This document shows positions 12,886 through 60,121 of a stretch of DNA of 64,000 nt, piece after piece. A program made the translations under genes and the position numbers. Source of the DNA: Parcubacteria group bacterium (lineage in GTDB: Bacteria > Patescibacteriota > Minisyncoccia > Moranbacterales > GCA-2747515); contig JBAZXC010000002.1 in assembly GCA_041660065.1 (NCBI GenBank), positions 240,768 to 304,767 on the forward strand, in the 5' to 3' direction. The notes below the pieces were generated by a model. That model searched no databases, was not told the origin of the DNA, and saw nothing but the letters and a program-made list of their open reading frames with translations. Every line of letters starts with the position of its first letter. Positions within the stretch are counted from its first letter, which is position 1.

Positions 12886-12910
12886 GTGTCATTCCCGTGA
12901 AAACGGGAAT
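12886..12910 (+). repeat. Member of the GTCATTCC...GGAATC short-hairpin repeat family
   Basis: GTCATTCCCG-TGAAAA-CGGGAATCC. Same conserved flanks as the copies at 48430, 51628, 53160 and 53210, with a covarying central stem. Confidence 0.6.
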
Positions 12911-12973
12911 CCACTGAATGCGCTAAAATATGATAACATTCCCATTGCCTAATTTCATTACAAATATATTTAT

Positions 12974-14611: not shown

Positions 14612-15337
14612 CTATATGGTTTTTTTCATCTCGTCAATCCATCCAATCAATTCAAAAAACAACCGTACATTTGTGATCCTTACATGAATAGTGCCATGAG
14701 GTATTGTATTTTTAGCTCTTGTATTCTTACTATTATTTTTTACATGACTGACTTTCATAAAATTTTTTAGAGGTATTTTAGTTATTTTATGCCAATAATC
14801 CATAGATTTTTCTGCGTCAACATTCTTATGCGCAATGATTTGTATCTTCATGTTCTCTTTTGTAATATGAAGAAATTTTTCAAAAAAACGGATCATTATA
14901 GTAATCATTGCAGGATCTGAATTGGCAAAATCAATGCTTTTCCATTTACTGCCATAGGCACCTTTTTTATAGCCCTCTGACCAATACATTGCGACACCTG
15001 CAATAAATAAAGGGTCTTTAGTGTATTTATGGTATTGCAAAGCTGCAAAATCTCGTATCTTCTGGTGTTCCTCTTGAGATTTTTGAGTTTGTTGTCGATT
15101 CCTTTTTATGAGAGCTTTAACACTAGTATCATGTACACGCTTATGTATTTTTTCTTGCGCGAGTTGAGATAATGAAACATCTTTTAACCATGTGCTCAAA
15201 GTACTTTTTGGAATAGTCATTTTCTGAGATATTTGATTATAACTATATCCATTTCTGCGCAATTTTATAGCATCATCTTTGTCTTTTCTCATAAAATAAA
15301 TAGAACCTATAATACTATCAATGTACCATAGGTTCAT
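14612..15337 (-). CDS. Hypothetical HTH-domain protein; possible mobile-element/homing-endonuclease-like gene adjacent to the intron-containing tRNA
   Basis: 241-aa, AT-rich. N-terminal HTH (GYSYNQISQKMTIPKSTLSTWL, IS30/resolvase-like). Start lies 14 nt after the tRNA-Phe 3' end. No clear LAGLIDADG, GIY-YIG or HNH motif. Confidence 0.45.
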   Translation of the reverse strand: MNLWYIDSIIGSIYFMRKDKDDAIKLRRNGYSYNQISQKMTIPKSTLSTWLKDVSLSQLAQEKIHKRVHDTSVKALIKRNRQQTQKSQEEHQKIRDFAALQYHKYTKDPLFIAGVAMYWSEGYKKGAYGSKWKSIDFANSDPAMITIMIRFFEKFLHITKENMKIQIIAHKNVDAEKSMDYWHKITKIPLKNFMKVSHVKNNSKNTRAKNTIPHGTIHVRITNVRLFFELIGWIDEMKKTI

Positions 15338-15351
15338 ATTTATAACAATGA

Positions 15352-15662
15352 TGGTGCCGAGGGAGAGAATCGGACTCTCGACACAAGGATTTTCCTTATA
15401 CTGTCTTATGTTTCCATAAGGATTGGACTATATCATTCCCGCTGAGCGGGATTGGGCGCTATTTGCAGGATTATTGTTGGGACTCACCTGCTAGTCTCTA
15501 CTCCTTCCTTAACACTTTATACCCATTAAGGCTTGGATCGGGATTGTCATAATTCTATAAGAACCGTAGATTTCCCCGAATTCACCCAATTTTTCTCACT
15601 CTATATTGCTATAGAGGGGACCGAAAATTCAGTCCTTTGCTCTACCACTGAGCTACCTCGGC
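15352..15662 (-). tRNA. tRNA-Phe (GAA) interrupted by a group I intron (exons 15631..15662 and 15352..15394; CCA encoded)
   Basis: 5' exon GCCGAGGTAGCTCAGTGGTAGAGCAAAGGACT. 3' exon GAAAATCCTTGTGTCGAGAGTCCGATTCTCTCCCTCGGCACCA. Spliced product folds into a canonical cloverleaf with anticodon loop CTGAAAA. Confidence 0.8.
15395..15630 (-). ncRNA. Group I self-splicing intron (236 nt) in the tRNA-Phe anticodon loop, inserted between U33 and G34
   Basis: 5' splice site follows U, with a U.G pair in P1 (exon GGACU pairs with intron IGS GGUCC). The intron ends in omega-G (..UAUAAG|GAAAA). P2 hairpin CUCUAUA-gcaa-UAUAGAG. P3/P4 core AAAUUGGGUGAAUUCGGGGAAAUCUACGGUUC closely resembles the cyanobacterial tRNA-Leu intron core AAAUUGCGGGAAAGGGGUCAACAGCCGUUC. 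P7-like GAGACUA ... UAGUCC. Confidence 0.8.
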
Positions 15663-15757: not shown

Positions 15758-15978
15758 TTTTTATTGAATAGATCCACCAACTTATTTCATATGAATGTTG
15801 TTTTTTCTTTTATATAATGAATTTTTGACAAAAAACTTCTGTCATTCTGAACTTGTTTCAGAATCTCAAAACTATGGCTTATGTAGATGCTGAAACAAGT
15901 TCAGCATGACATAGATATTAAATGAGATCAACAAATATCATTGTACAATATTTTTTTATTTCTTCCAACCTCTTCTCG

Positions 15979-18398: not shown

Positions 18399-18443
18399 AC
18401 TCCCACTATTATATATGAATACAACAAAAAAATATATCCACAT

Positions 18444-18512
18444 GCTTTAAAATTTGCAGAAAACATGGTACATTTGCACTGTATGTTAGTAGGTGTTTTG
18501 CAACACCAAAAG
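18444..18512. repeat. Repeat A copy 1: ~70-bp promoter-like element, about 94% identical to 21558..21626
   Basis: GCTTTAAAATTTGCAGAAAACATGGTACATTTGCACTGTATGTTAGTAGGTGTTTTGCAACACCAAAAG. Three direct ATTTGCA/TTTTGCA motifs plus a GGTGTT-ttgc-AACACC hairpin. Confidence 0.7.
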
Positions 18513-18681
18513 CTCACTTAATACGCGTATTTGAACACATTATCTACCCACAAATTTGCACAATGACCGGTTATGGCAAATGTCGCTTCGTTCATCTTTA
18601 TTTATTTTATAGAGAAAAAATAAGGCGTTTTCCTCACTATGCTACGAAAGCTGTTTATATTTAATTAATACGTGAAGTATT

Positions 18682-21446: not shown

Positions 21447-21538
21447 TAGCAGGAGCAGGTTTGTAACCTGCTCCTCTTTTTTTAAAAAAAGAAAAGCTCT
21501 CCTGTAGATGCCAATGGAGAATTTAGATAAAAAAATAC
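21447..21538. repeat. Repeat T copy 1: ~90-bp terminator module (bidirectional terminator hairpin plus second hairpin), duplicated at 24457..24548
   Basis: AGGAGCAGGTTTGTAACCTGCTCCT followed by T and A runs, then AAAAGCTCTCCTG...CAATGGAGAATTTAGATAAAAAAA. Confidence 0.75.
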
Positions 21539-21557
21539 CCATAAAATATGTATACGT

Positions 21558-21626
21558 GCTTTAAAATTTGCAGAAAACATGCTACATTTGCACTGTGTGT
21601 TAATAGGTGTTTTGCAACACCAAAAG
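21558..21626. repeat. Repeat A copy 2 (promoter-like element)
   Basis: GCTTTAAAATTTGCAGAAAACATGCTACATTTGCACTGTGTGTTAATAGGTGTTTTGCAACACCAAAAG. Confidence 0.7.
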
Positions 21627-21693
21627 TTCGCGTAACATACAAATTTTGGCTTTTATACGATTGAAGTTCACTTAATAACCAGTTATGAAAAAT

Positions 21694-24456: not shown

Positions 24457-24548
24457 CATCAGGAGCAGGTTTGTAACCTGCTCCTTCATTTTTTATAAAA
24501 AAAGAAAAACTCTCCTGCACGTGTCAATGGAGAATTTAAATAAAAAAA
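24457..24548. repeat. Repeat T copy 2 (terminator module)
   Basis: AGGAGCAGGTTTGTAACCTGCTCCT hairpin followed by T and A runs, then AAAAACTCTCCTG...CAATGGAGAATTTAAATAAAAAAA. Confidence 0.75.
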
Positions 24549-47657: not shown

Positions 47658-47819
47658 TCATATTTCCTCCTTTTTCCAGGATTTGTCCTGACGATTATAA
47701 GCTCTTTTACCTTGTGGTGTTCCGTGTGCACCACCACGATGACGCAGGGTTTCCACCGTTTCCGCGTGCAGTTTTACCGGCACACGCTCCAAAACAAACA
47801 CAAGCTTCTTTCTTTTCAT
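47658..47819 (-). CDS. Small basic protein (53 aa), hypothetical
   Basis: MKRKKLVFVLERVPVKLHAETVETLRHRGGAHGTPQGKRAYNRQDKSWKKEEI. Below the ORF-track size cutoff. Followed on the minus strand by a perfect terminator AAGCAGTAA-gaaacat-TACTGCTT then T-rich sequence (47622..47650). Confidence 0.4.
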   Translation of the reverse strand: MKRKKLVFVLERVPVKLHAETVETLRHRGGAHGTPQGKRAYNRQDKSWKKEEI

Positions 47820-47974
47820 TTCCTTTCTCCTTTTTTAGTTAGGATAAACAACATTTTCTTGTAAAATTTTTGTCTCACATTTTGAGTCACCTTTTTCATT
47901 GTCAAATGATATTGTGGATCATCATATGGTCGGGGTATATACATTATTTTCATAATTTTACATTAATATTCCCT

Positions 47975-48050
47975 CTAAGAAACCTCTTGCCAATAAAGTT
48001 TTTTAGAGAGAAGGGATCGCTGTAAATATACAACGATCCCCCTATAGAAC
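47975..48050. repeat. Nested hairpin repeat of the CCCTCTA...TAGAGAG family with inner GGGATCG...CGATCCC stem
   Basis: CCCTCTAAGAAACCTC...TTTTTTAGAGAGAAGG outer arms. Inner stem GGGATCGCTGTAAATATACAACGATCCCC. Confidence 0.5.
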
Positions 48051-48057
48051 ATCCAAC

Positions 48058-48348
48058 CTAACTAGCTGGTAAAAACTCCATATTATTGAACTCATCCATA
48101 TTTTTAAAACGAATAAAATATGGATGAAAGTGCCTCGGCATTCTCCGCGGTCCGGCAGGTTGCTGTGCAAAGATAAAATCCTTGCGCTCAGCGACCCTGC
48201 GAATATCGACAAGATAATAGACATTCTCGCGAATTTCATCTGCAGGTACAGATCCTTCTGTTGCTGCAGGAATCACGTGAACGACTTTTCCGTTCACATA
48301 AACCGTCACAACTTTTAGGATCAAATTTACTATCGTAATTTTTTCCAT
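48058..48348 (-). CDS. Hypothetical protein
   Basis: 96-aa ORF. No motif recognised. Confidence 0.35.
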   Translation of the reverse strand: MEKITIVNLILKVVTVYVNGKVVHVIPAATEGSVPADEIRENVYYLVDIRRVAERKDFIFAQQPAGPRRMPRHFHPYFIRFKNMDEFNNMEFLPAS

Positions 48349-48397
48349 GACGTTCTCCTGTGTTGTATTATTGAACTTAACTGCGTGATATTTTCCC

Positions 48398-48475
48398 TCT
48401 ACAATATTTCTTTTTTTGTCATTCCGGACTTGATCCGGAATCTTAAAAAAATATTGTAGAGAGAGATGAGAAGGT
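48398..48475. repeat. Nested hairpin element: outer CCCTCTACAATATTT/AAATATTGTAGAGAGAG arms enclosing GTCATTCCGGAC-ttga-TCCGGAATC
   Basis: Same architecture as 51605..51685, which has outer CCCTCTAAAATATTT/AAATATTTTAGAGAGAGG arms and an inner stem carrying compensatory changes. Confidence 0.65.
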
Positions 48476-48695
48476 ATAGATTTCTACACCTTCTCATCAG
48501 CCACATTCTTTCCCTGTGGCACGGGGACATTGTTCTTCCGGGCTGCAGCACGAATCGCACTGCCCAGAGAAACAGTTAACGGTTTACTCGGCCGGCACGT
48601 ACGCTGGCGGAGCTCCTTTGCCGGGATAAAGCCAACTATTTTTGCCATTAACCGACCTCCTTTGGTTAAATTTCACACGCACATTATGTAGCGTG

Positions 48696-48783
48696 TGTAC
48701 TACATTCATCAGCTTTTTTTACGTGGGCTTCCTCCACAGTATACGTCCGTTAATTTTCAAAGCCGGACGGAGGATTTCTCTCC
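48696..48783. repeat. ~85-bp structured repeat, copy 1 of 3 (also 51536..51615 and 52768..52850)
   Basis: TCATCAGCTTTTTTTACGTGGGCTTCCTCCAC...[CGTCCG-loop-CGGACG]...GAGGATTTCTC. Copy 2 has GGTCGG/CCGACC in place of the inner stem, a compensatory double change. Confidence 0.7.
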
Positions 48784-48978
48784 TCAGTCGGGGTTGCATC
48801 TGGGACATGAAACATCATCCCAGAGACTAAACAGACGTCCGCATTCCGCGCAGAGCCTGTCCCCCTCATGCACATATGCCAAGTGATCAACCCACATCTG
48901 CGGGTTATCACTTTTCTTGGCACGAGACAATCGCTGTCGGCGACGTCTCTCCTGAGATTCTATTTTTTTATCTCTCAT
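48784..48978 (-). CDS. Small zinc-ribbon protein, hypothetical
   Basis: 64 aa, Arg-rich N-terminus, CAECG...CPRC. Overlaps the upstream ORF by 11 nt. Repeat copy 1 begins immediately after the stop. Confidence 0.4.
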   Translation of the reverse strand: MRDKKIESQERRRRQRLSRAKKSDNPQMWVDHLAYVHEGDRLCAECGRLFSLWDDVSCPRCNPD

Positions 48979-49309
48979 GATCCACCTCCTCAGGTGTTGA
49001 GATAGAACCGGGGTGAAAAGTGCCGCGTTTCCCTTTCACGGAAACATGCCCATCCATCGTTATCGAACCAACGATTGATGGCGTCTTTTCACCTCTCACA
49101 TAACAGATGCTTCCAGGAGCAATTCCTCTCGCCTTAATCTCAGCGAGACGATTATCGATCACCTGCTGATGAATGATTTTCCCGATTTGTCGGTACAACG
49201 AAAATCGTACCGCGATCGGTATGGCATCAGGATTGAGATGGGGATAATGACTTATTACCACCTTCCGATACCACTCATTTTTCATGACAAAAGTTTTTCC
49301 CATGATCAC
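48968..49309 (-). CDS. Hypothetical protein
   Basis: 113-aa ORF forming an overlapping pair with the zinc-ribbon ORF. Confidence 0.4.
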   Translation of the reverse strand: MIMGKTFVMKNEWYRKVVISHYPHLNPDAIPIAVRFSLYRQIGKIIHQQVIDNRLAEIKARGIAPGSICYVRGEKTPSIVGSITMDGHVSVKGKRGTFHPGSISTPEEVDHER

Positions 49310-49852
49310 TCCTCCGTATTTGATTTTTTTGGTTTTTTCCCTCTAACATTCCACAAATCCAAATTTATGAAATTTTAGAGAAAGGAGATGGTTTTCATTA
49401 AAAACCATCTCCACGTCGTGCATTTGCTCGGGGACGATGATGTGTCGTTTTTCCCTCCGCTTGAATATCTTCTTCTTGAAGATTTTTTTCCTACGAGGCG
49501 CACATACCCCGCGATCCTTCCCATTGTTTTGGGATTGCGAGTGGAAGCTCGCTACTTCAGAAGGCCGGATTAGCCATATTGCTTCTTTGGGTTATGAGGA
49601 GAGTGCTCTCATAATTTACCCCAAAGCCTTACACCGGAGGAACATCATCGCCCCCGTTTCCCTTTTTCAACTGCATCCGGCCAAGATGTCAGTGAAGTGA
49701 GCTTCCAACTCACGATACCGGCATCTCAGGGATGTGATGCCACTCTCTCTGTCATTTCACAAAAATTATGCGCAATGACAGAGAGAGATGAATTGATCTT
49801 TAGCTCGAATTTCTTTTCATATGCCACCCATGGTTGTTTTTGCAAGAGAATT

Positions 49853-49898
49853 ATTTCCCTCTAATATATTACGAATTATCATGAGATATTAGAGGGGA
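49853..49898. repeat. Hairpin repeat of the CCCTCTAATAT...ATATTAGAGGG family
   Basis: TTCCCTCTAATATATTACGAATTATCATGAGATATTAGAGGGGAA. Confidence 0.55.
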
Positions 49899-49914
49899 AT
49901 AATTATTTTTTGAA

Positions 49915-50484
49915 TCAAGTGTGACAATCGATAAATAATATGAAACAATCAAGAGGATATGATTTCAATATTTTTTGAAACCTTTTTTTCCATATCTCAA
50001 ATTCTTTTTCGTTACTTTCACCCACGCGTATAAAATATTGGTCACTTGTAATCATTTTACAATCTGGAGTAAAAATAGCATGTTCAACAAATTCTTCATT
50101 CTTGAGCACATCTTCAATCATACAAACATCATAAACATTCCAATAATCAAACATTCCATGAGGATTTTTATCACGCATAACATAATATCTGCCATTTTCA
50201 ATGCCACTGGATAGATCACAATTCCAATTCTTTATTTTTTCCAAAATTGATTTTTTATTGTTTATATCCGTACTCCCATTCTTCAATATTCTGTCAACCT
50301 CATCCTGAGCATAATAAACCTTATATGGCTTCACCTTTTTGTCTATATCATAATGATTAAGAGGTTTAAAAAGCTTTCCTGTAAAATAATTCATAAAATT
50401 ATACTTGTCATTTTCTATTTTATTTTTTACATCCTCTCTGAGACTAAATTCAAATGGTATTACGGCAACAATTGTATAATGCAT
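49915..50484 (-). CDS. Hypothetical AT-rich protein (foreign-looking)
   Basis: 189 aa. Very low GC relative to its neighbours. No recognised motif. Confidence 0.45.
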   Translation of the reverse strand: MHYTIVAVIPFEFSLREDVKNKIENDKYNFMNYFTGKLFKPLNHYDIDKKVKPYKVYYAQDEVDRILKNGSTDINNKKSILEKIKNWNCDLSSGIENGRYYVMRDKNPHGMFDYWNVYDVCMIEDVLKNEEFVEHAIFTPDCKMITSDQYFIRVGESNEKEFEIWKKRFQKILKSYPLDCFILFIDCHT

Positions 50485-51125
50485 ATTTTTGTCAAAATCT
50501 ATAAACGTAATTACACTATTATTCCTCTAATATCTTACAAAAATATTTTATAAAATATGAGAGAAAAGCGAAGTTTTCTCGTTGAAATAATGATCCTATT
50601 TTATCCAATCCATAGAAACAAAGATTGGACAAAAAAAATAGCGCGTTTCGTGTCACACCTGGCAGCAAATGGTCAGACACGATTGGTGTTTGGAAGAATC
50701 AATATTCTTCCGCGAGGAGAAGTGACTGCCAGATCACACTACCTCTTACACTACAACTTGCACGAGAGTCATTAGATACTCTGCGATTGCTTGTTGCTTT
50801 TGCTTGATTTTGGTATTCTTTTACCAAAATGTTCGCAAGGGATCTCCGTATGTGGAGCGCTACCTCCCACCGACCCCCGGTATTAGCATCATTCATATAT
50901 CGAAAGATACTAATATCGAATGTCGACAGAATATAAATTATTAATGTGTGTATATTTTTCCTCAAATAATTTCAAATAATATTTTAGAAATTAGAGAAAA
51001 GCGAAGTTTTCTCGTTGAAATTTTACAGGATGTGTTGATCCCAACCTTGTTTTTTGCCCGGAATTGTGACAAGGATGTTCCCGTTTGTTTTTCATCGGCT
51101 TGGCGGGAGTCCGATTACGCTTGCG

Positions 51126-51440
51126 TTACTCTGCAGGCTTGGGGATGGCTTTCTTCCCCTTGGCAGGCCCGGTACGACCACTCAGGCTTTTGCCAAACTT
51201 CTCCAAAAACGGTTGATATTGCATCCGCTCTTGGTTCCGCTTGGCCGCCTCAGCTTCGGATTGTTCTAGCCCATAAAAAGGCACGAACTTTCCTTCAGCT
51301 TTTGCCTGCCTGGCGAGCTGTGCCCGACACTTCAGGCACACCGGAGTGGTCACCCACACCCCCTTCTCCTTGCGGAGGGCGAGAGAATGATTGACTGCGG
51401 TGCCATTACCAGCGTGTACTGCACAATAATCTTTTCCCAT
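51126..51440 (-). CDS. Hypothetical small Cys-containing basic protein
   Basis: 104 aa. CAVH...CLKC. Lys/Ala-rich C-terminus. Confidence 0.4.
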   Translation of the reverse strand: MGKDYCAVHAGNGTAVNHSLALRKEKGVWVTTPVCLKCRAQLARQAKAEGKFVPFYGLEQSEAEAAKRNQERMQYQPFLEKFGKSLSGRTGPAKGKKAIPKPAE

Positions 51441-51535
51441 AAGTCACCTCCGTGAAAATGGATTGATCTTGGATGGTTTTTTCGACACTATGCCGAATTT
51501 ATGTCGGTCATCCATACATACCCCGACAGAAATAT

Positions 51536-51615
51536 TTCATCAGCTTTTTTTACGTGGGCTTCCTCCACTTTTAGGTCGGTTAAATATTCAAAACCCGACC
51601 GAGGATTTCTCCCTC
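51536..51615. repeat. ~85-bp structured repeat, copy 2
   Basis: CATCAGCTTTTTTTACGTGGGCTTCCTCCACTTTTAGGTCGGTTAAATATTCAAAACCCGACCGAGGATTTCTCC. Confidence 0.7.
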
Positions 51616-51685
51616 TAAAATATTTCTTATGGATTCCCGATCAGGTCGGGAATGACAGGTAAAAAATATTTTAGAGAGAGGAAAT
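51605..51685. repeat. Nested hairpin element: outer CCCTCTAAAATATTT/AAATATTTTAGAGAGAGG arms enclosing GATTCCCGATCAGGTCGGGAATGAC (minus orientation)
   Basis: Direct read. Inner stem TTCCCGA/TCGGGAA, versus TTCCGGA/TCCGGAA in the 48398 copy. Confidence 0.65.
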
Positions 51686-51803
51686 ATGACATTGCATTAT
51701 TTCCTACTTCTTGTGACATGTGACCGCTTTGTCTGAGCGTTCTGGAGCTTCCCCAGAATATTATTTGTCAGTTTTTACACCCTCATGACATGGAGGGTTT
51801 ACC

Positions 51804-52013
51804 TCATGGAAAAAGGTCGAGGATCGCGATGACTACCTCATCCCGATTATGGGTCATACAAAAATGCTCACGACCCAAACCGTTGATGTAGTACGTTCTC
51901 GAACGAATTCCTTTCCGCAGACCCTTACCACAAAAGAGACAGGAATGATCCTTGCGGTTTCTGACGATCTGGGCATTCATAGCGCCCTTGACTACGTTAG
52001 GAACTCTCCTCAT
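51804..52013 (-). CDS. Small zinc-ribbon-like protein, hypothetical
   Basis: 69 aa. CLFCG...H.C..H. Confidence 0.35.
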   Translation of the reverse strand: MRRVPNVVKGAMNAQIVRNRKDHSCLFCGKGLRKGIRSRTYYINGLGREHFCMTHNRDEVVIAILDLFP

Positions 52014-52767
52014 AGACCCTCCTTGTTATTGATCTGTATTTGTTTAAAATCTCTCTAATACTTCACAAAGGTTTATTTTGAGCATATTGAGACACAAAAA
52101 AACTTCGCAAGAAAATTTATGTCCTTTAGGCTAAATATATTTACTATTTAGATAGCCCGATCTCAACCTTTGCGAAGTTTTAGAGAGAGGAAAGCGTGTG
52201 AGATTTTTTAAAAAAATTCTCACTTAAGCGTTGGCTTTCCGGGCAACGGTAATATTAAACTTCTCATCTGTGCAATCAGACAAGAAGCACATTGCAAAAC
52301 GTCGATAACGTTTTGCAATGCCCACAGAGTTTCTTAGTCATCTGTGGGTAGTGTGTGAAAAAATAGTGAACTAGATTGATCATGATAACCGAGTTTGCTA
52401 TAACTTCACTTTAGTTTGATTTTAAGGCACGTTTCTTGTGCCAAGGGAGACCATCTCCCTCATCAAACAGCCCGCCTGCCCCATATCAACGGTTCTTGGT
52501 ATAAACCAACCATCTCTAAGAAAGATGGAGGAGTTTGGCTCTGCACGCCTACACACTGCGCTCCGCACGCCTTTATAAATAGGTTATATACAACCTATCA
52601 CTCGTGTGTATTATCCCAATGCTATAAAGCGACAGGGATTATTAATCGCGTCTTGCTATTACACAAGGAATTCATATTTTTGGGTATTTCCCTCTAATAT
52701 CTCACAAAATATTATATGAGATCTTAGAGAGAAGAGATATTGATATGATAAATAATATCTCTACAAC

Positions 52768-52850
52768 GAGTTTCATCAGCTTTTTTTACGTGGGCTTCCT
52801 CCACAGTATACGTCCGTTAAACATTAAAGCCGGACGGCGGATTTCTCCCC
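52768..52850. repeat. ~85-bp structured repeat, copy 3
   Basis: TCATCAGCTTTTTTTACGTGGGCTTCCTCCACAGTATACGTCCGTTAAACATTAAAGCCGGACGGCGGATTTCTCC. Confidence 0.7.
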
Positions 52851-52867
52851 GCGGGTTGATACTATAA

Positions 52868-53104
52868 CTACGGAACGATCACGCCATATGTTGCTAATCT
52901 GGCGTGGAGATCATGGATCAGATCCTTGGAAGAAGCTTCAATCCGAATCTCGCCATGATGACCAATCTCACAGCTAATCCATTTTTCCTGCACAAAACAG
53001 CGATGTGCAGATGGTGCTTCGAGATCAATATCCTTATGGCATCGCGGACACCTACCCATAAGGCCGATACCCACAAGCCTTCCAATCCGTTTCATTTCAA
53101 TCAT
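52868..53104 (-). CDS. Small zinc-ribbon protein, hypothetical
   Basis: 78 aa. CPRCH...HRC...C..GHH. Repeat copy 3 lies 17 nt after its stop. Confidence 0.4.
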   Translation of the reverse strand: MIEMKRIGRLVGIGLMGRCPRCHKDIDLEAPSAHRCFVQEKWISCEIGHHGEIRIEASSKDLIHDLHARLATYGVIVP

Positions 53105-53129
53105 GGTAATCCCCCTAGTTAATTTATTG

Positions 53130-53258
53130 TAATATTCCCCTCGTTTCTTCCTAAAAATCTGTCATTCTGGACATGATTCGGAATTATGGATCAGTGTTTC
53201 ATGTTATTAAAGATCCTGAATCGCGCTCAGGATGACAAGAGCGCTTTTAAGAATAAAC
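53130..53258. repeat. Composite hairpin element: outer CCCTCGTTTCTTC/AAGAATAAACGAGGG arms enclosing two GTCAT...GGAATC-family hairpins
   Basis: Inner hairpins GTCATTCTGGACATGATTCGGAATT and GATCCTGAATCGCGCTCAGGATGAC. Confidence 0.55.
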
Positions 53259-53712
53259 GAGGGAAATATTAAATTGTTAAAGAAAATGAGAGAAATATCT
53301 TTAGTTCATTTAAATTATTGTACTTTTACCACCAATAGCTCATCATCACTGATAAGTAACGGCTTGGTGTGCCTGTAATACATGTGAACTGGTTTCTTGT
53401 GAAAAATGGTCGATTATATATTACTAAAAACCTATATTTCACTTATATTGTCACATGTATTACAACCATTCTGCCGATTGGATGTACTTACACCCTCCCG
53501 CACAGATCAGTCTTATGTCAAAGTAAAATAACTATCTTTGTTGTGCTACAGCCCTGTGTCATCTCGATCACTTCACTGTAACAACATAGTATATCATGCC
53601 AAAATTATTTTGTCAAGTGTCACTGACAATATATAGACATACACGCATTATTATTCTAATTTAAGGCTTTTTTTAAATTTTTATAAGATAATTCGCGTGG
53701 ACATTTTTAAAA

Positions 53713-53737
53713 ATGATGGCGTGATTTACGCCATCAT
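53713..53737. promoter_or_regulatory. Perfect 10-bp-arm palindrome (ATGATGGCGT-gattt-ACGCCATCAT) about 58 bp upstream of the -35; candidate operator
   Basis: Direct read. Not followed by a T-run, so unlikely to be a terminator. Confidence 0.4.
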
Positions 53738-53794
53738 GCAAAATTTACCGATGGATACGCCGTGCAGAGTTCCACACTGACCTGTTCACGGGTA

Positions 53795-53823
53795 TTGACA
53801 ATTATTTAAAACCATGCTATAGT
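53795..53823 (+). promoter_or_regulatory. Near-consensus sigma-70 promoter
   Basis: TTGACA, 17-nt spacer, TATAGT. Confidence 0.7.
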
Positions 53824-53829
53824 GTATCT

Positions 53830-54258
53830 TGGCTATGGCAGGAACAATATTTCTGTCTATCCGACGAAACATTGTTCTTTAAACATAAACCGCAACCCCT
53901 CACAAGCAAGAGGTTGCACAGAAGGAAGAGGCGTTACACAAGAGAGATTGGCTTTCTTGCGTAGCAAAGCTTTTAACTGGCAACCTTAACGTGGAGGTGT
54001 TGCTATGGGTTGTTGATATAGACCAAATTGGACCGTGAATGCCTCGTCTCGCTTGTTTAGGAGATGAGGTGTCCAAGACTTCCAATTGGTTTCTATTGAC
54101 GATTCATAAAAAAATATGAAGGAGAACATCATGGGTCTGTAGCCTGTATTGTTGAGCAATTTTCACAATCAACAAAATCCGTTGAAGAAAATTCATGAGT
54201 AAAAAATCCATCCAGTATTCTTCTGGATAACTGCAGTAAAATCCTGAGTTGGCTTATA
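53830..54258 (+). ncRNA. Candidate ~430-nt non-coding RNA of unknown class
   Basis: No plus-strand ORF of 60 aa or more between the consensus promoter (53795..53823) and a 12-bp-stem terminator (54221..54260). An early hairpin GAACAAT...ATTGTTC-TTT sits at 53846..53882. No tmRNA, RNase P RNA or SRP RNA hallmarks recognised by eye. Confidence 0.45.
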
Positions 54259-54260
54259 TA
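54221..54260. terminator. Bidirectional rho-independent terminator
   Basis: AATCCTGAGTTG-gcttatatag-CAACTTAGGATT followed by TTTTTTAT. Confidence 0.8.
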
Positions 54261-54265
54261 GCAAC

Positions 54266-55015
54266 TTAGGATTTTTTATTACTAACAGCTTTAATGGCTA
54301 ATTTAAAAATAGATTTTAAGGTTTCAGCAATATCTTTATTTTCTATAATTATTCCAATTTTGTCGCGATAGGATGTTAGACGAATTTTGTCTTTGTAGAC
54401 AGCAATGTCTCCAGGAAATATATAATCTGTCTTGTTTATTTTAATTCGAGTGTTGTTTTTATCACTTTCCAATGTTGATTTTTCAGAATTATAAAGAGCT
54501 CTTACACTCGATTTATTTTTTAATCGTATCCGTTTAAGTTTTTCATTTTCTTCTTTTGATATGAAATTGTCCATTTCATCCTTTGAAAAGGCTAACCACA
54601 TAGGCTCATCCTTTGTAAAATCAAAGCTTGAACTTGCCATTCGCATAATTCCCTCTTTCCCTAAATAATACTTCACAATCGGTTTTTTGATACTGGCGCT
54701 ATTGATGCTGTTTAATTCTTCCACAAGTCCTTTGAGTGTCTGTTTTTTTTGTTCTATAACTTGCTTTTGCTTTTCTAGGATGTTTTCCAGCTGTGCAGGA
54801 TCCTCCGGGACAAACATTTGCTTTTTTTCCTCATTTGATGCACTGACGAGACCGATCTTCATGAGATTTTCCAATGTAAAATACGTCGTTGCTCGATTGA
54901 CACCGGACTTTTTGGCGATCTCTGCCGCACTTCCCTGTCCCAATTCCAATGTAGCAATGTACACTTTTGCCTCTTTGTCATTTAGACCGATTTCTTCAAG
55001 TTTTTTTGCAAGCAT
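54266..55015 (-). CDS. TrmB-family transcriptional regulator (second copy)
   Basis: N-terminal wHTH: IGLNDKEAKVYIATLELGQGSAAEIAKKSGVNRATTYFTLENLMKIGLV. Confidence 0.75.
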   Translation of the reverse strand: MLAKKLEEIGLNDKEAKVYIATLELGQGSAAEIAKKSGVNRATTYFTLENLMKIGLVSASNEEKKQMFVPEDPAQLENILEKQKQVIEQKKQTLKGLVEELNSINSASIKKPIVKYYLGKEGIMRMASSSFDFTKDEPMWLAFSKDEMDNFISKEENEKLKRIRLKNKSSVRALYNSEKSTLESDKNNTRIKINKTDYIFPGDIAVYKDKIRLTSYRDKIGIIIENKDIAETLKSIFKLAIKAVSNKKS

Positions 55016-58943: not shown

Positions 58944-59346
58944 AATTATTTGTTTCAGATAATAATCCCGTAATATTTGTCATCAACTGTCTTTACCCTC
59001 AAATCCAGTTACAAACATTGTGTTTTGGCGGAAAAAGAAAGAAGTAAGAAAAAAATTCCTCACCCCTCATTGTCCGTAGAATAATTATAGCACATAATTA
59101 TTTTTATGAAAAGGGTAACATATCCACAGAATACATAAACATACTATATGTTGTGCTTTACCATTTATACCTACCACAAGTAGATTTTTCATATTGACAT
59201 GAAACTTTTTATGTTTCGTTTATAAATAAAATAATATTTTTCTCTTATAAAAATTTCCTTCCTGCATATTTTTTATAATTAACAACAAAATATACATTTT
59301 GTCAAGTATTTAAACTTGGCCAAAAAATATTATTCAAACACTCCCC

Positions 59347-59960
59347 ATTGTTCCACGTGGAACAATATATCTGTTTTTTTATAAATCATTACAAATGATT
59401 TATAGTACGATGTCTTTTATACAGATTCTGTAAAATAACAAATTTTTCTATCATAAATACAAAGTTATCTCATTTTTATTTTGTTCCACGTGGAACAAAA
59501 TGTATTGCATACGACTTTTTTGCAAAAAATTCAATAAGGTTGCCAAGTTGCAATTGTTCCACGTGGAACAATTGCAAAAATTTTCACATATATTATAACA
59601 AAATACACTAAAAAATATCATGATCTGCACATTTTGTTCCACGTGGAACAAAATATTTTCATGATAGATCTATATACAAAAATATTTTTCCGGTATCAAA
59701 GAGGGAAATAGCCCGACGTTTGATTATAAAAAATACTGAATGTTCCACGTGGAACAAAAAATTATACAGACTTTATAAATAAATAGGCATATTTACTATA
59801 TAAATCGATTTCAATATCTTACCAAAGAAAAATTATATGAAAATTGGTTCTAAAAATTGTTCCACGTGGAACAATTGCGGTAAATCTGTACAAACATTTT
59901 ATATTACGCCAGCATTATGTTTACAATATATAAAAAATTATATTGTTCCACGTGGAACAA
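59347..59960. repeat. Array of seven 18-20-bp perfect palindromes TTGTTCCACGTGGAACAA (parS-like, TGTTCCAC half-sites), spaced 71-131 bp, in an AT-rich ORF-free region upstream of nrdD
   Basis: Copies centred near 59356, 59489, 59563, 59642, 59749, 59866 and 59952. Several extend to 22-30-bp palindromes (e.g. TTGCAATTGTTCCACGTGGAACAATTGCAA). The B. subtilis parS is TGTTCCACGTGAAACA. Confidence 0.75.
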
Positions 59961-60121
59961 AACGGAATTGAAAAGGGAAGTTTGTGGTCTATACTGAAAT
60001 TAATGTATTGACATTATCCTATTTTATGTTGTTATGCTATTTTATATTGATTATCCTCTATTTATATGGTACATTATGAACACTTTTCTATCTATGCATT
60101 ACCATATCAATGCAAAAAATT

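Follow-up and report, generated by a model that had tools for sequence, protein, structure and literature searches.

Polar palindromes at the module boundaries of a hypervariable island in Candidatus Moraniibacteriota: a possible integron-like cassette array

Analysis of 64,000 nucleotides of a Parcubacteria group bacterium (assembly GCA_041660065.1, contig JBAZXC010000002.1, positions 240,768–304,767; this whole stretch is called the window below, and coordinates refer to it unless another locus is named) reveals an island between the genes nrdG and ldh that carries an array of 11 imperfect palindromes, 40–142 nt in length, between positions 47969 and 53271. Each of these outer hairpins stands exactly at a boundary between co-oriented small open reading frames (ORFs) or RNA modules. 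The palindromes are maintained as hairpins with a fixed left/right asymmetry and are confined, within the window, to the array, and from lineage to lineage the modules that they separate have been reshuffled, lost, added or replaced horizontally, the non-homologous junctions lying at two conserved cores. The host of the array, as identified from the neighbouring ldh gene, belongs to Candidatus Moraniibacteriota, in the candidate phyla radiation (CPR, Patescibacteria). In the window approximately 8.3 kb separate nrdG from ldh, and in this direction one meets first two small ORFs on the plus strand, then a trmB-like gene together with its terminator, a pair of divergent promoters, a leader and finally the array. 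The features are listed below from the island head towards ldh (hp, outer hairpin; c, cassette ORF; rep79, a repeat of 79 nt).

54266–55015, minus strand: trmB-like winged-helix regulator (Pfam TrmB, 3.9e-15) at the island head, in the same orientation as the array
53795–53823, plus strand: second, divergent consensus promoter, TTGACA-17-TATAGT, conserved in the related locus L003 by alignment
53588–53616, minus strand: sigma-70 consensus promoter, TTGACA-17-TATACT with TG, 11 of 12 consensus positions, pointing into the array
53272–53587, minus strand: conserved non-coding leader of about 320 nt, from the promoter to the first hairpin, ending in TTCTTTAACAATTTAATATTTCCCTC
53130–53271, minus strand: hp11, the first palindrome, with arms ATATTTCCCTC / GAGGGGAATAT, enclosing an inverted doublet of inner hairpins
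52868–53104, minus strand: c78, zinc-ribbon-like, no family matches
52772–52850, minus strand: rep79 copy 3
52686–52734, minus strand: hp10, short consensus type, preceded by a cassette-specific stem-loop (52733–52762)
52191–52685, minus strand: non-coding module with two terminator-like stem-loops
52048–52190, minus strand: hp9, long type, arms ...AAAACTTCGCAAAGGTT..., with homologous hairpins in L003, L006, L048, L049 and L052
51804–52013, minus strand: c69, an ORF
51604–51685, minus strand: hp8, AAAATATTTTTT-arm type, containing an inner hairpin (51632–51656)
51536–51614, minus strand: rep79 copy 2, beginning at the hp8 3' core
51126–51440, minus strand: c104, a CxxH...CxxC protein with a homolog in 8 of the 9 arrays or array fragments examined
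50955–51000, minus strand: hp7
50520–50566, minus strand: hp6; the upstream stem-loop GAGAAAACTTCGCTTTTCTC is common to hp6 and hp7
49915–50484, minus strand: c189, AT-rich and near-orphan; its sole homolog (L061) is likewise preceded by an hp6-like hairpin
49852–49900, minus strand: hp5
49743–49787, minus strand: hp4
49384–49750, minus strand: RNA cassette, candidate structured RNA of about 330 nt with its own terminator (49384–49412)
49338–49385, minus strand: hp3
48784–49309, minus strand: the ORFs c113 (48968–49309) and c64 (48784–48978)
48705–48783, minus strand: rep79 copy 1, directly after the c64 stop codon
48484–48648, minus strand: c54, an ORF
48392–48466, minus strand: hp2, containing an inner hairpin (48418–48442) and preceded by a specific stem-loop (48465–48498)
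48058–48348, minus strand: c96, an ORF
47969–48012, minus strand: hp1, the last hairpin, preceded by a stem-loop (48013–48041)
47658–47953, minus strand: c45 and c53, terminal small ORFs by ldh; c53 is conserved in most insert-bearing relatives

The first-pass annotation of this stretch had described a dense field of nested hairpins with shared outer arms and co-varying stems. The field is real: the strict pattern CCCTCTA-N20-50-TAGAGRG gives four matches against 0.00 expected from shuffled sequences, and 9 of the 10 window matches to TTAGAGGGAA (at most one mismatch) fall inside the 5.3-kb field. All 11 outer hairpins belong to the one array; the other 58 kb of the window contain none, and no arm pair was found elsewhere in the 64 kb. 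Arms of the CCCTCTA...TAGAGRG type are indeed shared, whereas the ATATTT extension that had been attributed to them is present only in a subset (hp2 and hp8). Target-site duplications, a check that the annotation had proposed, were not found flanking the outer hairpins. Comparison of the outer palindromes with viral contigs returned six pattern matches, all by chance, being single copies with no pairing beyond the core.

On the coding strand the outer hairpins read 5' YTCTCTCTAA, followed by a variable paired stem and loop and by TTAGAGGGAAA 3', and, hp11 apart, this polarity relative to the ORFs is the same in all seven related arrays; hp11 differs from the other hairpins in that both of its arms are of the right-hand (3'-core) type. 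The layout of a module on the same strand is ...GAGGGAAAUA, a 5' untranslated region with a ribosome-binding site (RBS), the ORF(s) or RNA, then in most cases a private stem-loop and finally the family palindrome. The private stem-loops are module-specific and near-perfect (e.g. 48465–48498, 49384–49412 and 52196–52223). Covariation of the outer stems was tested on an alignment of 23 short hairpins from seven arrays, in which 88.6% of the cells are paired versus 78.1 ± 1.1% in shuffles (0 of 500) and 44–66% with a slid partner; 57 cells are compensatory versus 19.3 ± 4.5, and both-sided changes occur in 12 of the 19 pairs. The covariation of the outer stems is real. The helix consists of an outer part of 9 bp and an inner part of 8 bp, separated by a single position, which 11 of the 23 hairpins leave unpaired; the loop is variable and bulged (extrahelical) bases are not found in the outer hairpins.

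Two columns of this alignment carry T·G in most members (14 and 17 of 23). Wobble pairs are concentrated there, and in 47 of the 48 the 5' arm supplies the T and the 3' arm the G. In 35 of 36 hairpins the coding strand folds more stably than the antisense strand, by −6.3 kcal/mol on average, and this preference is due to the two fixed T·G positions: once they are removed no strand bias is left (17 G·U versus 22 A·C). We therefore read the two columns as polarity marks that tell the left half from the right, and not as a selected RNA helix or a generic RNA-style tolerance of G·U; the use of the G·U bias as proof of an RNA function was withdrawn for the same reason. The outer hairpins are followed by GAAATA, and the missing U-run rules them out as intrinsic terminators; only some of the private stem-loops qualify (e.g. 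49412–49384). A promoter function was also rejected, for the apex often reads (T/C)ATAA(T/A) but no usable −35 box stands on either strand. Screening of the hairpins, rep79, the leader and the RNA cassette against Rfam at gathering and permissive thresholds returned nothing, apart from weak generic matches to miRNA precursors (29 bits versus a threshold of 100 bits).

The field had been thought to hold almost no conventional genes. At least 10 ORFs with ribosome-binding sites are nevertheless encoded in the array, all on the minus strand (c53, c45, c96, c54, c64, c113, c189, c104, c69 and c78), and several of them have homologs in related arrays and, by their substitution patterns, are under purifying selection. 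For the four tested ORFs with a readable synonymous divergence (dS), the ratio of non-synonymous to synonymous divergence (dN/dS) is 0.07–0.14 for c104, 0.09 for c113, 0.3–0.5 for c54 and 0.55 for c53; for c64 the proportions of non-synonymous and synonymous differences are 0.24 versus 0.78. All 14 homologs of c104 come from close relatives. In Pfam, PHROGs, PADLOC and NCBIfam the cassette proteins had no match that rose above noise. An AlphaFold model of c104, built with 13 homologs, is poor (pLDDT, the predicted local distance difference test score, 62.5), and Foldseek found no match to it in the PDB with E<0.4.

Comparable islands with differing cassette sets and orders are present in L003, L006, L049 (identical to L050 and L051), L052, L054, L047 and L048. 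A trmB-like homolog heads the arrays of the first five and of L047, and is found at the array start wherever the sequence covers the array head; L048 gave no trmB match. In the relative L004 (9917–10001), nrdG and ldh lie 83 bp apart with only the nrdG terminator between them, and both trmB and any island remnant are missing. The same site is occupied by an unrelated single gene in L005 (3847–4905, an ORF of 352 aa) and by another in L007 (8836–9756, 306 aa). The nrdG–ldh intergenic site is a general insertion hot spot across these relatives. Two Logan contigs of the same strain, L001 and L002, assembled from short reads (SRR18595301), end at the two ends of the array; hairpins break short-read assemblies, so that such islands are probably under-represented or fragmented among metagenome-assembled genomes.

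At the head of the array, the two divergent near-perfect sigma-70 promoters lie approximately 180 bp apart (within 53272–54265) and both are conserved in relatives. The putative product of the plus-strand promoter (53830–54260) would converge on the 3' end of trmB. L003, L006, L049 and L047 all have conserved counterparts of the minus-strand promoter, of the leader and of the TTCTTTAACAATTTAATATTTCCCTC at which the first palindrome starts. The identity of the leader to those of L003 and L049 (75–79%) matches the level of the coding parts, and the leader contains a 14-nt inverted repeat (53374–53387/53451–53464).

Comparison of the arrays reveals how the modules have moved. The cassette order is c104...c64-c54 in the window versus c104-c54...c64 in L003. 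Among 32 cross-array pairs of hairpins that share a flank, 30 have a single neighbouring module in common, either the upstream or the downstream one, and in the same 30 of 32 the hairpin interior follows neither flank. The most informative pair is the window and L049, whose core genomes on both sides of the island are 85–91% identical, with a core-gene dS of 0.52–0.62 (NrdD, LDH, YkuD, TSP3 and h319). Some parts of the island are older than this core, with dS values of 1.7 for trmB and 2.05 for c104 and saturation for c53. On the other hand, a block from 49764 to 48457, comprising the RNA cassette, hp3, c113, c64, rep79 and c54, is 95.2% identical to L049, with a dS of 0.21 for c113 and 0.05 for c54. 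This block starts in the AGAGAGAG of the hp4 3' core and ends in the TCTCTCTA of the hp2 5' core, and past both ends the window and L049 differ in hairpin interiors and in modules; c54, although inside the block, is followed by a different hairpin in each of the two. From the differing histories of the pieces, in dS and at the block ends, it follows that the island is a mosaic joined at the cores. An Xer-like crossover at the hairpin centre was considered and rejected, because the block ends fall at the outer cores.

Not all modules code for protein. The RNA cassette is conserved in four arrays (the window, L049 10819–11215, L052 5989–6433 and L003 6162–6520) with indels that are not multiples of three, and its predicted fold has long-range helices and 99 pairs, 15 of them with compensatory changes; the module at 49384–49750 is thus a candidate new structured RNA carried as a cassette. 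The second non-coding element, rep79, occurs in 12 copies over all loci, three in the window, four in L003 and one each in L006, L045, L046, L047 and L048. It has an invariant 30-nt segment, GTGGAGNAAGCCCACGT..AAAAAGCTGAYGAA, and a stem of 6 bp, in which pairing is 100% and two of the pairs show Watson–Crick variants (four at one, three at the other). Most copies open with the 3'-core-like GAGGRGARAAATCC, those of L046 and L047 do not, and the position of the repeat is after either a hairpin or an ORF stop codon. It stands just upstream of c104 in 6 of the 8 c104-bearing arrays; in L046 it is found alone, beside a distant trmB-like gene. No match to rep79 was found among viral contigs, and an assignment as a hammerhead ribozyme, considered for its CUGAUGA, was rejected for want of Rfam support, of a conserved stem II and of GAAA. 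The first-pass annotation had offered structured RNAs as one explanation of the hairpins; structure of this kind is indicated for the RNA cassette and rep79, two elements that it had left undescribed, and neither has a match in Rfam.

The interpretation that we favour, and advance only tentatively, is that the array is an integron-like cassette platform whose palindromes act on DNA, as attC-like joints between exchangeable modules. The hypervariable island of about 8 kb consists of the trmB-like gene, a promoter, a leader of about 320 nt, a special first palindrome and approximately a dozen co-oriented modules, these being small ORFs, each with its own RBS, and at least one candidate structured RNA; most modules end in a private stem-loop followed by a palindrome. 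The palindromes would be functional attC analogues at which modules swap, through a recombinase encoded elsewhere or through core-guided template switching or illegitimate recombination of incoming DNA, and the whole array would be read from the leader promoter. The likeness to integrons, and to clusters of attC sites lacking an integron integrase (CALINs), begins with a conserved promoter and leader, a special first palindrome, ORFs on one strand and variable content. It extends to small orphan ORFs, each followed by a polar palindrome of variable length (40–142 nt; attC sites span 57–141), to palindromes with conserved ends and a variable centre, to a cassette content and order that differ between relatives, and to some cassettes that are younger than the genome. 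On the coding strand pyrimidines predominate at the 5' end and purines at the 3' end (YYYTAA / TTARRR versus RYYYAAC / GTTRRRY). In attC sites the R'' box is RYYYAAC and the R' box GTTRRRY, with the crossover between G and TT (PMC8876359); the cores in the window are YTCTCTAA(N) and (N)TTAGAGG, and TTAGAG fits five of the six positions of the TTRRRY of this R' box, the last base being G and not Y. By this analogy the array may work like an integron.

Several observations weigh against this reading. The attC triplets are missing in 10 of the 11 hairpins, GTT being present only in hp3 and AAC in no matching 5' arm. Junctions are found at both ends of the palindromes, so that a palindrome is not inherited with its upstream ORF, whereas the integron crossover takes place only at R' and the attC travels with the ORF upstream of it. 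A Pfam scan, which took in the ORFs accepted as genes with a length of at least 150 aa, nine ORFs of 100–149 aa selected from the gaps and the one large end-truncated ORF, detected no recombinase or transposase family, Phage_integrase included, in the scanned window ORFs, although not every ORF of 80–149 aa was scanned; precomputed Pfam lists for the related loci of about 20 kb (L049–L054) contain no recombinase either. The conserved cores are the only short sequences repeated throughout the array, and illegitimate recombination would therefore use them without a dedicated enzyme. The identity within the 95% block is patchy (98.5%, about 90% and 97%), with one transition inside c113, a pattern that ordinary homologous recombination gives. 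In L049 c78, one copy of rep79, hp10 and the greater part of the non-coding module that comes next are missing, a difference of about 1 kb near the array head whose endpoints share AATATTAC (L049 9560–9680 versus 53100–53140 and 52225–52260 in the window), which suggests a microhomology deletion between these repeats, away from the cores. Neither circular intermediates nor strain-level single-cassette polymorphisms were seen; L049, L050 and L051, being 100% identical, are uninformative in this respect.

The main rival, which we consider doubtful but possible, places the palindromes at the RNA level: the array would be one long operon under the leader promoter, punctuated by palindromes that fold in the mRNA as signals for its processing, stability or termination, and the shuffling would be a by-product of recombination at the sole repeated sequences. 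All modules are indeed co-oriented behind a conserved consensus promoter, the sense fold is the stabler one in nearly all hairpins, the two conserved T·G positions can wobble-pair only in the sense strand, and directly before most hairpins stands a stem-loop, specific to the cassette, by which a processed 3' end could be protected. Hairpins between the cistrons of one transcript, with a sense strand that folds better, are also known from the RNase III hairpins of the T7 early region and from mRNA stabilisers of the repetitive extragenic palindromic (REP) type; in the array, unlike in these systems, the core sequence is conserved, polar and tied to module exchange between genomes. The strand preference comes wholly from the two fixed positions, since elsewhere A·C, which could wobble-pair in the antisense strand only, is as common as G·U, and U-runs do not follow the hairpins. 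Moreover, the strict conservation of the cores across arrays with saturated dS exceeds what known RNase III sites, by established knowledge, need, and an RNA function leaves unexplained why non-homologous modules always arrive with the same flanking cores.

The palindromes might also be selfish elements, similar to REPINs (inverted REP doublets) or to miniature inverted-repeat transposable elements (MITEs), piled up in a dispensable island with the ORFs as unrelated passengers; we regard this as unlikely for the array, and the evidence divides between the outer hairpins and a second family nested within some of them. This inner family (GTCAT, an 8-bp stem, a loop of 4–5 nt and ATC) has seven copies in the window versus 1.1 in shuffles, at 12888(+), 15841(+), 15910(−), 48418(+), 51656(−), 53161(+) and 53236(−). 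Four of the seven lie in the loops of three outer palindromes, in either orientation, and three are intergenic elsewhere:

12888–12911, plus strand: inner-type hairpin outside the array, after a pseudouridine synthase gene
15841–15910, both orientations: inverted, REPIN-like doublet of inner-type hairpins between tRNA genes

The dispersal of the family claimed by the first-pass annotation is thus confirmed by the copy at 12888, and the doublet 15841/15910, which that annotation had missed, joins the one at 53161/53236. The stems vary by compensatory changes (ATTCCGGA, ATTCCCGA, ATTCCCGT, ATTCTGAA, ATGCTGAA, ATCCTGAG). Like REPs and REPINs, the inner hairpins are imperfect palindromes of about 25 nt with a fixed 5' tag, here GTCAT, and co-varying stems, and they agree with the descriptive definition of such elements, being extragenic, tagged and dispersed as singletons and inverted doublets. 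They depart from it in that the tag is not the GTAG of described REPs, the copy number is low, several copies lie within the loops of outer palindromes and no gene for a REP-associated tyrosine transposase (RAYT) is among the scanned ORFs of the 64-kb window. We would see in them a separate REP/REPIN-like element nested inside some of the outer palindromes. The REP/MITE-like nature that had been proposed for the field as a whole therefore suits the inner hairpins, intergenic, dispersed, co-varying and in part paired as doublets, and not the outer ones, which are limited to one array, of fixed polarity and placed at module boundaries. Dispersal, nesting in either direction and hairpin interiors that change independently of both flanks are what selfish elements would produce. 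The outer hairpins, on the other hand, have no copy in the other 58 kb of the window and no target-site duplications, keep one fixed polarity relative to the ORFs in all seven arrays with one outer hairpin per module boundary, and have no transposase nearby among the scanned window ORFs.

It is rather improbable that the palindromes are operators, that is, double-stranded sites through which a dimer of the adjacent TrmB-like protein would silence or co-regulate every cassette: operators are typically palindromic, and the trmB-like gene stands at the island head and is missing where the island is missing, but mirrored compensatory changes of the arms (12 of 19 pairs) are unexpected for half-sites contacted by a protein, the left and right halves consistently differ and the lengths range from 40 to 142 nt. 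The idea that the TrmB-like protein could be a nuclease of the phospholipase D type was ruled out, since its sequence contains no histidine at all and an HKD motif is therefore impossible.

Least probable of all, and in our view very improbable, is an ordinary integron or CALIN, a canonical attC cluster with its integrase elsewhere. The overall architecture and the resemblance of the core TTAGAG to TTRRRY would speak for it; against it stand the lack of intI among the scanned window ORFs, the missing AAC/GTT triplets, a crossover pattern unlike that of integrons and the literature searched, in which integrons are not reported from Patescibacteria or CPR. The motifs, inspected by hand, likewise argue against a pass with the attC covariance model of IntegronFinder, which a CALIN requires of two or more sites. 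The array further departs from integrons in its two fixed T·G positions (A·C on the other strand), which stand in place of extrahelical bases, in the trmB-like gene that precedes the array in the same orientation, in the long conserved leader and in its CPR host. In attC sites extrahelical bases mark the strand, within a fold of two paired boxes that an unpaired spacer separates and a terminal loop of variable form; in the palindromes it is the two fixed positions that distinguish the strands. We did not file it as an integron, because intI, conserved AAC/GTT and extrahelical bases are absent and exchange takes place at both ends.

Two further known systems offer partial parallels. The pdif (Xer) modules of Acinetobacter plasmids are also small, bounded by short inverted sites and reassorted without an adjacent recombinase gene, and the hairpin apex TCATAA-N6-8-TTGTGA recalls the dif centre, CATAA-N6-TTATG; the pdif sites, however, are of 28 bp, as against palindromes of 40–142 nt, and the junctions in the array lie at the outer cores and not at the centre. 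The possibility that the hairpins are part of an IS200/IS605 end, which the first-pass annotation had allowed for, found no support: the window scans yielded no IS200/IS605 protein (neither tnpA nor tnpB among the scanned ORFs) and no other transposase. Moreover, the other hairpin of each boundary is private to its cassette and shows no conservation, unlike the paired subterminal hairpins, similar in sequence and directly oriented, of IS200/IS605 ends and of palindrome-associated transposable elements (PATEs).

Some observations were made elsewhere in the window. Seven copies of an 18-bp palindrome, TTGTTCCACGTGGAACAA, with an irregular spacing of 73–133 bp, lie at 59346–59964 in a stretch of 27% GC upstream of nrdD, and the cumulative GC skew of the window has its minimum near 60–61 kb; this cluster could be a replication origin or an array of binding sites for a regulator. 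In sedentary chromosomal integrons the reported orientation places the "bottom" strand on the leading-strand template (PMC5371416). If the putative origin at 59.3–60.0 kb is real, the array would be co-oriented with replication and its antisense strand would be on the leading-strand template, as in those integrons. A group I intron (Rfam, 79.6 bits) lies at 15404–15640 on the minus strand, in a tRNA gene cluster and outside every tRNA called by ARAGORN, with an ORF of 241 aa with a helix-turn-helix domain (14612–15337) just downstream. Two pairs of direct repeats, 18409–18532 / 21523–21646 (124 nt, 81% identity) and 21468–21535 / 24481–24548 (68 nt, 84% identity), each about 3 kb apart, bracket metabolic gene clusters.

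To our knowledge, integrons are the only well-understood system for stockpiling and reshuffling promoterless gene cassettes in bacteria, and our search of the literature found no relevant paper on integrons or cassette arrays in Patescibacteria, CPR, Parcubacteria or Moranbacteria. A bolder proposal, possible though we hold it with more doubt than conviction, is that the island represents an undescribed cassette-capture platform of CPR bacteria (Moraniibacteriota), headed by trmB, driven by a promoter and leader, carrying both protein and RNA cassettes with polar palindromic joints, and working by a mechanism other than IntI/attC. Such a platform would rely on an unrecognised recombinase acting in trans or on a hairpin-guided, enzyme-poor route coupled to DNA uptake, and rep79 and the linked zinc protein c104 would be possible parts of its machinery. 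The array carries at least one new candidate structured RNA as a cassette. An array that follows integron logic with other sites and no integrase would mean either that the attC/IntI paradigm reaches beyond what current detection models, based on AAC/GTT, are able to recognise or that cassette platforms evolved more than once, and would give a handle on how the tiny genomes of host-dependent CPR bacteria acquire accessory genes.

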